NCBI GenBank assembly: GCA_031555055.1
Contig: JAVBUT010000006.1
Coordinates: forward strand, 3,886-67,885
Reading direction: 5' to 3'
Origin: Alphaproteobacteria bacterium
Lineage (GTDB): Bacteria > Pseudomonadota > Alphaproteobacteria > Rs-D84
Length of the DNA: 64,000 bases
Part shown: piece by piece, positions 38,077 through 42,806 of the stretch
How the letters are laid out: every line of letters begins with the position of its first letter
Position numbering within the stretch: the stretch's first letter is position 1
Program-made: the position numbers and the translations under genes
Notes under the pieces: generated by a model
Databases searched by the model: none
Seen by the model: only the letters and a program-made list of their open reading frames with translations
Told to the model about the DNA's origin: nothing

Positions 38077-38106
38077 AAAAAAACCGGCGAACGCCGGTTT
38101 TTTTTA
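38077..38106. terminator. bidirectional terminator between the motB-like and P2 3' ends
   Basis: AAAAAAACCGGCGAACGCCGGTTTTTTTTT. Confidence 0.7.
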
Positions 38107-40692: not shown

Positions 40693-42806
40693 TACATATT
40701 TATATCTTCACAAGATGTGACTTCGAACGGTGATTCTTCTATCCCCTTGCCCGTTGCCTTGCCAGCAAAGAATCCACCGACACCGCCAACAACCGCGCCG
40801 ATCGCCGTGCCCCAGCCCGGCATGATCATTGTGCCCGCCGCCGCACCCGTCGCCAGACCGCTGCCCGCGGTTTTCAGACCTGTGGTATTTTTATCTTCAC
40901 CGCCCTCGGCATATCCGAACTGTGTGCGGCATACGTGACAGTTGCGTAAATTTTCTTCATATGCAGGCTCGCTACTGATAAATGTTCCGGCCTTGCCTTC
41001 GGGTCTGACCTCTTTTACATACTTCGTCAGACAGTTTTGCTTTGATTCCGCAATGCTAAGTTTTTTCGACAATTCCGCAACACGCGAATCCAGTGCACGT
41101 ATCGCACGGTTTTCTGCCGATGATTCCGCAATCAGTTTCGCAGTATTGAAAACAGCGCTGCCCAGATTTGCCCCGCTGCTTTTGCATGCGGCAACTGTTA
41201 TGTCTTTTTCAAATTTTTTGAAATAATTATTAACAGCCGTTTTGGAATCAGCGCGAACTTTTTCACGCAAGGCCGCCATTTCCGAATCAGTTGCCGGGAT
41301 CGCCGTCATCGTCGTGACGGTTGTATCCGCCGGCAGACAAGACATGTCCGTTCCGCACGCGGCATTCAACGTATTGCTGAAATGATTCACACATCCCTGG
41401 ACCATTTGATAGTCCATCTGCAACATTGCGGATTGCACAATAATATTATACTGCGTTTCGCCCTTGCAAGACGGGAACATTGTCTGTGGGCACAGCGACA
41501 CAATTTGCGAAGTCTTTTTGTTCAGACATTCCGGCGCGTCATAGTTTTTGCCGCACTTGTCCTGCAGACACTTGTTAATATCATTCTGACAGAATTGTAC
41601 GCGCATAAACGACAGCTTGTCTTTCGTAAAACTGCGCAGACCCGGAATCTTTTTATCGCATTCGTCAATGATCGGACATATACCGGCCGCGACGTTGATA
41701 TTGGTCAGACACGCGGTTTCGGTTGACGTTGAACATCCGTCTTCCAGACATCTTTGTATCTTGGCCAGACAGGTTTGGCGCTGGTACTTGTCCGCATAAA
41801 CCACGGCATCGGTCAGAACCATTTTCGATTCCGCCGCCCAGTCTTGCAATACATAATCGCGCACTGCCAAACATTGGTCCAGAACGTTTTCGCACACATT
41901 CGCACGACGCCCCAACAGCTCTGCATCCAGACAGTTTTCAAAGTTCGCACCACAACCGCCCTTGTCCGAAATACAGGATTTATACGCCAGCAGACATTCG
42001 CCACGATTATATTTGTTCGTCGTGTCCAGCATTTTCAGACGTGCGGCGCGCACGGCGGCCTCGGCCGTTCTTTTATTCGTTTCGGCATCTTTTTTTTGCG
42101 CCGTCAGATACGTGTTGAATGCTTTGCAGTCCTGGGTTATCTGGCGCGAATACAGGGCGGATTCCATATCGCCGGATTGACCGCACGCGGCCAGTTTGTC
42201 CGCGCAAAAATCCGCAGCCATACTGTATAATCCATCGCCAATATCGGCGTCCGACCCCAGTTCATCAGATACTTCGCCGTTGCTGTTCACCCATTGCGAA
42301 AACGACAAGCCGGTTGCGCGGGAAACTTTCTTGGCGGCTTCGGATTCACCAAACACCAGCTTTGCCTTGGCCCCCAGCCTTTCGCGCTCAACCCCGGTTG
42401 TATACAGCGTCTCGGCTTCGGCCTGGATTTTTTGTATGTCGACGATCAACGGCTTTGATTGGCTGATATTATCGGAACAAGCGCAACGATAACCTTCGGA
42501 TTCATCCAACAGACAGAATTCGTCCATGCACGCGCGGTATGCGTCACGGCATGTGGCGGGATCAGCCTCGGCCGTTTTCAGCGCCGTTTCCTGGGCGGTG
42601 GCGGCAACGCCGGCGGCTTTTCTTTCTGCGGTTGCGACGGTCGTCGTATGGCCGCTTTTCATTCCTGTCACATTGGTAACATTTGGCGCACGCGATACGG
42701 CGCCGGATGCGCGTACTATGCCAACCCTGGCGTTTTCTGGTCTTTCCGCAGCCACAGCCATACCCGGCAAAATACACAAGGCCACTAAAATGGTTTTGAA
42801 TTTCAT
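40692..42806 (-). CDS. giant cysteine-rich secreted protein, family member P3, with C-terminal glycine-zipper segment
   Basis: True start MKFKTILVALCILPGMAVA at 42806. Signature CRDAYRACMDEFCLLDESEGYRCACS. C-terminus NCHVC...GSGLATGAAAGTMIMPGWGTAIGAVVGGVGGFFAG...CEDINM. Confidence 0.85.
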   Translation of the reverse strand: MKFKTILVALCILPGMAVAAERPENARVGIVRASGAVSRAPNVTNVTGMKSGHTTTVATAERKAAGVAATAQETALKTAEADPATCRDAYRACMDEFCLLDESEGYRCACSDNISQSKPLIVDIQKIQAEAETLYTTGVERERLGAKAKLVFGESEAAKKVSRATGLSFSQWVNSNGEVSDELGSDADIGDGLYSMAADFCADKLAACGQSGDMESALYSRQITQDCKAFNTYLTAQKKDAETNKRTAEAAVRAARLKMLDTTNKYNRGECLLAYKSCISDKGGCGANFENCLDAELLGRRANVCENVLDQCLAVRDYVLQDWAAESKMVLTDAVVYADKYQRQTCLAKIQRCLEDGCSTSTETACLTNINVAAGICPIIDECDKKIPGLRSFTKDKLSFMRVQFCQNDINKCLQDKCGKNYDAPECLNKKTSQIVSLCPQTMFPSCKGETQYNIIVQSAMLQMDYQMVQGCVNHFSNTLNAACGTDMSCLPADTTVTTMTAIPATDSEMAALREKVRADSKTAVNNYFKKFEKDITVAACKSSGANLGSAVFNTAKLIAESSAENRAIRALDSRVAELSKKLSIAESKQNCLTKYVKEVRPEGKAGTFISSEPAYEENLRNCHVCRTQFGYAEGGEDKNTTGLKTAGSGLATGAAAGTMIMPGWGTAIGAVVGGVGGFFAGKATGKGIEESPFEVTSCEDINM

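Follow-up and report, generated by a model that had tools for sequence, protein, structure and literature searches.

Do two adjacent paralogs of a gut bacterium form a conserved operon in which one product is held at a membrane and the other is not? The question is raised by a 64,000-nucleotide (nt) stretch of an Alphaproteobacteria bacterium (assembly GCA_031555055.1, contig JAVBUT010000006.1, positions 3,886 to 67,885; hereafter the window), in which two long open reading frames lie on the minus strand, P3 (40692-42806) followed in transcription order by P2 (38104-40620). The host lineage (the Candidatus Enterousia group, order Rs-D84) consists of uncultured, fermentative gut Alphaproteobacteria with genomes below 1 Mb (PMC12306168). 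At somewhat better than even odds (a probability of about 0.55), we read the locus as a conserved two-gene operon whose products have stapled C-terminal tails, with a glycine zipper of P3 lying in a membrane of the cell's own envelope and P2 remaining untethered or only peripherally attached.

P3 encodes 704 amino acids (aa) plus stop, starting MKFKTIL, and P2 encodes 838 aa plus stop. The open frame of P3 extends to 42905, and its orthologs of 710-720 aa cover all 704 residues (100% coverage); P2 orthologs range from 822 to 848 aa. Both leaders read as signal peptides of the signal-peptidase-I type. In P3 (MKFKTILVALCILPGMAVA, with cleavage before A; 42750-42806, minus strand; ortholog consensus MKxxxLxxLLCLxPGxAxAA) the Cys is preceded by A-L and followed by an A-x-A signal-peptidase-I site, i.e., there is no lipobox as in the PF05433 lipoproteins, and the P2 leader is likewise without one. 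The mature proteins contain 34 (P3) and 36 (P2) Cys, and their N-terminal ~420 residues align in a profile-profile comparison with an expectation value (E) of 1e-51. The family is marked by CxxxYxxCMDxFC, of which the 0.89-Mb, 77%-complete assembly holds nine copies; the nine paralogs found take up about 2.4% of this genome of less than 1 Mb.

Pfam and NCBIfam scans matched neither protein to any family model, and Foldseek searches against the PDB (P3 and P2) and BFVD (P3) gave nothing at E <0.1. Matches of the P2 C-terminus to CapZ and a levivirus coat protein were weak (E >1) and were discarded. AlphaFold2 (AF2) single-chain models had a mean predicted local distance difference test score (pLDDT) of 60 for P3 and 65.5 for P2. 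Judging from sequence, the products are most simply described as Sec-exported, disulfide-rich and largely helical proteins of an undescribed family. The cell is of the two-membrane type (BamA match of 150 bits), and the sole periplasmic oxidase candidate found is a DsbA-like thioredoxin-fold gene at 30706-31524 on the minus strand (PF01323, E 7e-18) with an N-terminal extension of ~100 residues; a search for DsbB detected none, which in an assembly of this completeness is not evidence of absence.

The two proteins also share their C-termini: both carry NCHVC and both end in CEDI[NK]M. Among the genome's 6599 frames with a length of 60 aa or more, a terminus of the form C[ED][DE][IVL].[MLI] is unique to P2 and P3, and for each protein the tail is kept in 120 of 120 orthologs among the matches listed. 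The P3 module (residues 622-704; 40695-40943, minus strand) comprises a strand (NCHVC...), a zipper hairpin and a second strand (...CEDINM), and the P2 module (residues 795-838; 38107-38238, minus strand) reads NCHVC...C-KTTGSSSWFHNSRNTS-C...CEDIKM. Alignment of orthologs brings out a five-Cys pattern that is hidden in the window's own P3, namely C1-H-x-C2 ... C3-[loop]-C4 ... C5-E-D-x-x-M. Specifically, P3 ortholog tails follow N-C1-H-[VI]-C2-R-x-Q-x-V-C3-E ... zipper ... F-C4-Q-E-I-E-S-C5-E-D-[VI]-N-M, and P2 ortholog tails follow C1-H-[IV]-C2-T-x-T-x-T-x-x-C3-[16-18 residues]-C4-x8-C5-E-D-I-x-M. In a local profile-profile alignment of the two tails (77% probability, E 2e-5) all five Cys are aligned and the zipper appears as an insertion, which indicates one homologous module.

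We compared the Cys complement of 93 distinct P3 tails, taken from orthologs, representatives of a 1.84-billion-protein search and genome loci. All five Cys are present in 76 tails (CCCCC), nine have lost C2 and C5 (C-CC-), and seven, including the window's P3 with Y632 and P693 in their place, have lost C3 and C4 (CC--C); single losses did not occur, and the 93rd tail was cut short in the alignment and is uninformative on pairing. The joint losses gave Fisher p-values of 1e-13 for C2/C5 and 8e-10 for C3/C4, with every other Cys pair non-significant, although related tails are not independent and these values therefore overstate the number of independent loss events. The replacement residues vary by lineage, which points to several such events. 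Since C2/C5 and C3/C4 are lost only jointly, we infer from this covariation a beta-hairpin tail whose strands are stapled together by the disulfides C2-C5 and C3-C4, while C1, which is always kept, presumably bonds to an upstream Cys.

The AF2 secondary structure agrees in outline. In P3 it assigns strands at 622-635 and 690-703 around helices at 639-658 and 666-680, and in P2 strands at 795-810, 821-828 and 832-837 with a low-confidence loop at 811-820. Within the secondary-structure limits of P3, the residue sums 632+693 and 626+699 both equal 1325, consistent with a single antiparallel register, and the ~20 acidic residues after the zipper pair back onto the preceding strand. Three other roles for the tail were considered and rejected. 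C-H-x-C as a zinc knuckle or redox CxxC fits less well than structural disulfides, given that nine lineages have lost C2 along with C5 and retain C1. A sorting signal (PEP-CTERM, GlyGly-CTERM or sortase/LPXTG type) would consist of a motif, a hydrophobic helix and a basic tail at the very C-terminus, but the P3 tail is acidic and has no NCBIfam match of that kind. An outer-membrane beta-signal does not fit an acidic tail whose terminal Met is not aromatic and which pairs back onto the strand before it.

Where the two tails differ is at the tip of the hairpin. In P3 the loop between the C3 and C4 positions has ~45 residues, arranged as G-x3-G-x3-G, a PGWG turn, and G-x3-G-x3-G-x2-G. The two-helix hairpin GSGLATGAAAGTMIMPGWGTAIGAVVGGVGGFFAG (residues 648-682; 40761-40865, minus strand) has GxxxGxxxG in each arm, with the PGWG turn at 40809-40820 between them. 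A transmembrane glycine zipper has been defined as (G,A,S)xxxGxxxG or GxxxGxxx(G,S,T) on a helix (Kim et al. 2005, cited in PMC10240207), and both G650-x3-G654-x3-G658 and G666-x3-G670-x3-G674 fit this definition and are invariant or nearly so in 43 P3 orthologs (strictly invariant are G654, G658, G664, W665, G666, G670, G674 and G677). Both arms are helical in the AF2 model, with 20 and 15 residues. When the P3 tail was searched alone, Gly-zipper_Omp (PF13488) matched below its cut-off (E 2e-4 to 9e-4, model positions 2-44 of 46), as did Gly-zipper_YMGG, Bacteriocin_IIc, Rick_17kDa_Anti, TraT and Gly-zipper_OmpA; full-length P3 had no Gly-zipper_Omp match at E <=0.1, PF05433 scored 10.7-15.2 bits on the tail, under its 24.2-bit cut-off, and the best NCBIfam match of the tail was the YiaD zipper. 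A profile search with the P3 tail returned ~30 representatives with the whole tail, all of them P3-type proteins or fragments, and a second tier of ~160 proteins in which only the zipper matched. In a reciprocal check, 4 of 10 sampled second-tier proteins passed the Gly-zipper_Omp cut-off (26.5-30.6 bits). Together with the lack of such a match in the P2 tail, this supports the view that the segment is a glycine zipper and that of the pair only P3 has one.

The outer-membrane zipper lipoproteins, i.e., SlyB/Pcp, YfgH, OsmB, YiaD and the Rickettsia 17-kDa antigen (PF05433, PF13488, PF13441), share with P3 a helix-turn-helix with GxxxG in both arms, provide the top Pfam families for its tail and equal its zipper in hydrophobicity. 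Two-helix zipper lipoproteins are embedded in the outer membrane, oligomeric and ring-forming (bioRxiv 10.64898/2025.12.22.696046). P3 differs in its sub-cut-off scores, in its size of 700 aa and Cys-rich helical make-up, with the zipper C-terminal, and in placing this zipper within a disulfide-closed loop, which these lipoproteins lack. Two further frames with a double GxxxGxxxG, of 173 aa and 227 aa (on two other contigs of the assembly, C3 and C8), may be this genome's ordinary small outer-membrane zipper proteins.

The best sequence matches to the P3 zipper lie elsewhere, in phage tape-measure, DNA-pilot and internal virion proteins (PHROGs 10093, 167, 23574, 11693 and 6056). Phage zippers and P3 have PGWGTAIG..VGG in common, and the core GT.I.PGWGTAIG..VGG is near-identical in 98 of the 120 second-tier matches examined. 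Among another ten second-tier proteins searched against PHROGs, the clearest result was the match of one to a Microviridae-type "pilot protein for DNA ejection" (E 7e-28). Several others have zipper segments that match those of tape-measure proteins, an internal virion protein and a tail lysin; in one long protein the remainder of the sequence matches a virion structural protein, and the sampled matches also included a crAss cargo protein. P3 itself matches tape-measure PHROGs (E 5.7e-6 for the tail, E 7.9e-7 at full length), with the match covering only the zipper and ~120 helical residues. As in P3, the phage carriers are soluble, largely helical proteins for which insertion is thought to be post-translational. 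As an observation in its own right, the core recurs in ~100 otherwise unrelated protein clusters (P0271-P0390), often at the very N-terminus, many of which are phage DNA-pilot, tape-measure, internal virion or crAss cargo proteins; its conservation seems too strong for a simple low-complexity motif.

One could thus suppose that P3 is released or displayed and that its stapled zipper inserts into the membrane of another cell (a host or neighbouring microbe), with P2 acting as a helper or an alternative head. Besides the phage matches, this idea draws on Tde1, Tse4, CdzC/CdzD and VacA, which like P3 have repeated GxxxG motifs and need them to permeabilise target membranes or form channels (PMC10240207), and on the reduced, transporter-poor genomes of the lineage, which suggest dependence on a partner (PMC12306168). 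We nevertheless consider it unlikely, given that no route across the outer membrane was identified for a Sec-exported 700-aa protein and that P3 is a single-copy, strongly conserved core gene by infA in most of the family, which is not effector-like. Unlike the effectors, P3 was seen with neither a toxin domain nor an immunity gene nor the setting of a dedicated secretion system; its neighbourhood has no conserved immunity-like gene, and Foldseek found no viral or PDB relative. Unlike the phage proteins, P3 has a Sec signal peptide, 34 Cys, eight paralogs and a chromosomal site beside infA; phage zippers lack flanking Cys and P3 lacks a virion context. We rejected P3 as a prophage tape-measure protein because of its signal peptide, Cys-rich family signature and conserved chromosomal context. 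A bolder version, in which P3 is an exported membrane-piercing rod with a disulfide-stapled helical shaft and a phage-type zipper tip for a partner or host membrane, and P2 provides a non-inserting tip, strikes us as a long shot; if true, such a rod could let a gut alphaproteobacterium with a tiny genome and few transporters attach to other cells or draw nutrients from them.

We regard a membrane of the cell's own envelope as the most likely location of the P3 zipper. In a 19-residue window, a classical transmembrane helix would reach a mean Kyte-Doolittle hydropathy of at least ~1.6 or have a Hessa free energy below zero. True Gly-zipper domains give 1.25-1.59 and +3.1 to +5.5 kcal/mol, so this test does not separate them from P3, and a TMHMM-type prediction on P3 could well fail. 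The same values bear on the possibility that the zipper is an inner-membrane anchor, formed as a C-terminal stop-transfer hairpin during Sec export, with P3 as a tethered periplasmic rod. Two AF2 helices around a PGWG turn, zipper flanks that both lie on the oxidising side, and a P3 without a lipobox or other outer-membrane targeting signal would all suit such an anchor. We judge it rather improbable, given that a Hessa value of about +5 kcal/mol per 19-residue window speaks against efficient stop-transfer, helix 2 is short if it is to span the membrane completely, and characterised Gram-negative two-helix zipper proteins reside in the outer membrane (bioRxiv 10.64898/2025.12.22.696046).

The corresponding tip of P2 is of another kind. 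Between C3 and C4 it has the 16-residue polar loop KTTGSSSWFHNSRNTS with an SWFH tip, which recurs in most P2 orthologs; some have a miniature Gly-rich version instead (KTKKSNGFLGIGGSNSTE or ...GLFGLWDS...). In every case, therefore, the P2 tip is a polar loop that bears a small knob, either hydrophobic or aromatic, and the tail has no zipper segment and no Gly-zipper Pfam or PHROG match. A Gly-rich, non-hydrophobic stretch does occur in P2, at residues 742-780, upstream of NCHVC.

Much of what a first-pass annotation of the window had proposed for these proteins stands. It had called the frames two minus-strand paralogs with a conserved NCHVC...CEDI(K/N)M tail and a zipper in P3 only, which agrees with the coordinates and N-terminal alignment, with the ortholog and frame counts, and with the GxxxGxxxG of both helices, the top (sub-cut-off) Pfam matches and the true zipper proteins retrieved by the profile. 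It had also likened the zipper to small outer-membrane antigens, which is right for the type of fold but not for its closest relatives, which are phage tape-measure and pilot zippers, nor for the missing lipobox. The predicted membrane segment of P3 likewise conforms to the zipper motif while falling short of the Pfam cut-offs and of classical transmembrane hydrophobicity. The suggestion that one paralog may be anchored and the other released or partnered is plausible. Finally, the Gly-rich stretch it described in P2 exists and is non-hydrophobic, but does not occupy a position equivalent to the zipper, lying ahead of the tail.

Are the two genes expressed together? We compared the locus in 20 relatives and two metagenome contigs. 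The order P3 then P2, with both genes on one strand, is shared by 18 of the 20 relatives, and in 13 of the 18 (12 genome loci and metagenome contig L009) the spacer is 0-34 nt, which is too short for a promoter. Most relatives' spacers end in a GA-rich motif resembling GGAGAGAGA (for example taaGTCGACATTATAGGGAGAGAGTCAAGatg), and the ancestral spacer is ~26 nt. The infA gene and a third paralog are placed divergently upstream of P3. Every relative checked has P3 next to infA and paralogs, and P3 is single-copy per genome. Of 24 other genomes in the same family, 20 contain the P3 tail, against 2 of 16 from other families of the order, and the P2 C-terminal region has an equal family-level range. 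The MotA/MotB-like pair that lies downstream of P2 was rejected as a conserved functional partner, as unrelated genes occupy that place in relatives.

The spacer of the window is 71 nt long and contains two perfect 8-bp hairpins on the minus strand: TAGGGGCGAATCATATTCGCCC (40670-40691; -12.3 kcal/mol), directly after the P3 stop and followed by AAGUAUG, and TAGGGGCAGATATCATCTGCCC (40640-40661; -13.2 kcal/mol), followed by AAAAGUA, neither with a U-run. They belong to a dispersed family. The pattern GTAGGGGCRNAT has 24 matches in the window against 1.5 expected, perfect-stem copies of the repeat family, headed TAGGGGC, number 112 genome-wide, and a genome-level search pattern for the repeat has 55 matches in this genome (none for a control pattern). 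As short, dispersed, intergenic palindromes, the doublet qualifies as a repeat of the repetitive extragenic palindromic (REP) type. The genome-level pattern occurs 43 times in a genome of a different genus of the same family (G014), 0 times anywhere in four same-genus genomes and 0-3 times in other genomes. As the repeat is absent from same-genus genomes, whose spacers are 9-27 nt, the doublet is a young, lineage-specific, selfish insertion. The patchy distribution of the repeat (TAGGGGCG...CGCCC) in itself suggests a recent burst or horizontal spread.

Downstream of the doublet lies a GA-repeat ribosome-binding site, AAAGAGAGAGAG (40622-40633, minus strand), 1 nt 5' of the P2 ATG, whose GGAGAGAGA is kept in relatives and which is unpaired in the predicted fold of the spacer. 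Genome-wide, 38-45% of GAGAGAG/AGAGAGA sites are followed, no more than 12 nt away, by the ATG of a frame with 100 codons or more, compared with 7% for AGGAGG and 0% for the reverse complement; GA repeats, and not AGGAGG, behave as the preferred ribosome-binding motif of this genome. A consensus scan of the minus strand within the spacer found no promoter-like or terminator-like site. A GC-rich hairpin with a U-run, the mark of an intrinsic terminator, is instead found directly after P2 (AAAAAAACCGGCGUUCGCCGGUUUUUUU; 38077-38104, minus strand; CCGGC/GCCGG stem plus A-U pairs, U7, -16.4 kcal/mol).

Co-transcription of P3 and P2 is well supported by this architecture and its conservation, because gene order is kept, spacers are short, the spacer contains no U-run, promoter or terminator, and a terminator follows P2. 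The first-pass annotation had described the spacer as a REP doublet plus ribosome-binding site only, exactly as found, and its proposal to compare gene order in relatives bore fruit in the order kept in 18 of 20; co-transcription, which it had called probable, remains so in view of synteny, spacer and terminator. The opposite view would be that the doublet acts as a terminator, RNase processing site or attenuator and that P2 is switched separately. Two stable hairpins, the first right at the P3 stop, a T-run after 38 of the 112 REP copies elsewhere in the genome, and four relatives with a hairpin and an extra gene between P3 and P2 lend it some substance, and REPs in E. coli can act by attenuating transcription, by stabilising the mRNA upstream or, close to a stop codon, by lowering translation of the gene before them. 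In addition, P2 codons 7-18, within its signal peptide, contain a perfect heptamer repeated five times (SFFIFHFSFFIL; 40568-40602, minus strand), absent from the N-termini of relatives. Yet both hairpins are followed by A-rich sequence and not a U-run, no promoter-like site separates them from P2, the ribosome-binding site is predicted to be unpaired and the ancestral spacer was only ~26 nt, so that independent expression seems improbable to us. The doublet may at most modulate the P3:P2 ratio and is too young to belong to the conserved design. As a separate point, gain or loss of one heptamer unit would shift the P2 frame, and the repeat may thus offer an on/off switch for P2 apart from P3.

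Returning to the operon with an anchored P3 and a free P2, we propose the following sequence of events. P3 and P2 would be made from a single transcript, exported via Sec and then oxidised in the periplasm. The stapled hairpin would keep both ends of the P3 zipper on one oxidising (periplasmic or outer) side, and after export the zipper would dip into an envelope membrane as a re-entrant or two-helix hairpin, probably in oligomeric form, and/or oligomerise there, thereby tethering P3. With the same clasp and no inserting element, P2 would be soluble or only peripherally attached. The data show the operon-like architecture, the tail homology, the Cys pairing pattern and the glycine-zipper nature of the P3 segment; co-transcription, membrane insertion, the membrane concerned and any contact between P2 and P3 are inferred. 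Precedents are the rings of outer-membrane zipper lipoproteins (bioRxiv 10.64898/2025.12.22.696046) and the post-translationally inserting zippers of phages and effectors (PMC10240207).

Several observations weigh against this proposal. With regard to the zipper, the Gly-zipper_Omp match of the P3 tail alone reached 19.5-21.6 bits against a 25-bit cut-off, the segment is not a classical transmembrane helix (Kyte-Doolittle maximum 1.30, Hessa about +5.1 kcal/mol), and its pLDDT is very low (32-39) within models of low overall confidence. Having no lipobox, P3 is without the route by which outer-membrane zipper lipoproteins are targeted, and the nearest zippers belong to phage proteins that insert into another cell's membrane, with which a role in trans fits equally well. 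The strength of the disulfide covariation is tempered by the shared ancestry of the tails, and even Cys counts (34 and 36) leave no free Cys for a covalent P2-P3 link. Nor is the pairing of P2 with P3 obligatory: one relative (G008) has a P3 that has lost C3/C4 and no tailed P2, in another (G011) the two genes are 66 kb apart, and in four relatives an extra gene and a hairpin stand between them.

The arrangement has a partial analogy in the chlamydial omcA-omcB genes (cysteine-rich outer-membrane complex), which are likewise adjacent Cys-rich envelope genes. These are co-transcribed, and only one of the two products is membrane-anchored. Unlike P3 and P2, the chlamydial proteins are no paralogs of one another, and the OmcA anchor is a lipid where P3 has a zipper; Pfam and NCBIfam gave no family match between P2/P3 and OmcA/OmcB, and the even Cys counts of P3 and P2 mean that intermolecular cross-links are not required. 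The spacer doublet resembles E. coli REP and bacterial interspersed mosaic elements (e.g., at malE-malF), which are also short GC-rich palindromes, many of them intergenic, paired and between co-transcribed genes, but differs in its consensus and in its patchy, very recent spread. The zipper and the REP-like repeats are therefore known kinds of element, while the protein family is undescribed. We found no literature description of a disulfide-stapled tail module, of zipper-tip and knob-tip versions in a conserved operon, or of a glycine zipper closed by disulfides without a lipid anchor.

The P3-P2 pair thus gives a first concrete structural handle on a family without Pfam, NCBIfam, PDB or literature description, in the form of a conserved C-terminal hairpin, an inferred disulfide map and a putatively membrane-active glycine zipper in one paralog. 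The tails yield a simple, testable model for the family's membrane contact, and a zipper in this new setting, with a disulfide-closed base and no lipid anchor, could inform how hairpins insert after export.

The P3-P2 junction also shows selfish elements colonising an operon without breaking it, with at least three kinds represented: REPs, GC-rich palindromes and a small four-helix-bundle gene. The last is the extra gene of the four relatives (loci L021, L022, L026 and L028 in G021, G006, G023 and G016, three genera); it encodes 115-123 aa of the 23S_rRNA_IVP four-helix-bundle family (PF05635, E 8e-27) in the same orientation as P3 and P2, and is preceded by a hairpin and short tandem repeats. 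PF05635 also includes the Avd accessory proteins of diversity-generating retroelements. One genome has a 121-nt palindrome at the junction. At locus L039 (G014, contig C46; nt 901-1143, reverse strand) a GC-rich palindromic element overwrote the P3 stop, such that the P3 frame runs 30 residues past CEDINM, and the remaining spacer before P2 is predicted to fold into a large hairpin structure (-98 kcal/mol over 225 nt).

Two minor observations remain. The window's P3 tail, with C3/C4 lost (...PFEVTSCEDINM), resembles that of G021 (L021), which is assigned to another genus, while four same-genus genomes (L019, L020, L024 and L029) keep all five Cys; either the genus assignment of an incomplete assembly or the history of the gene is at odds. 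Downstream of the P2 terminator (37822-38075), two further heptamer arrays, CTGATTC repeated 5.3 times at 38039-38075 and AGGAATC repeated 2.3 times at 37822-37837, bracket a REP cluster in which the unit at 37970-37990 is followed by a T-run.

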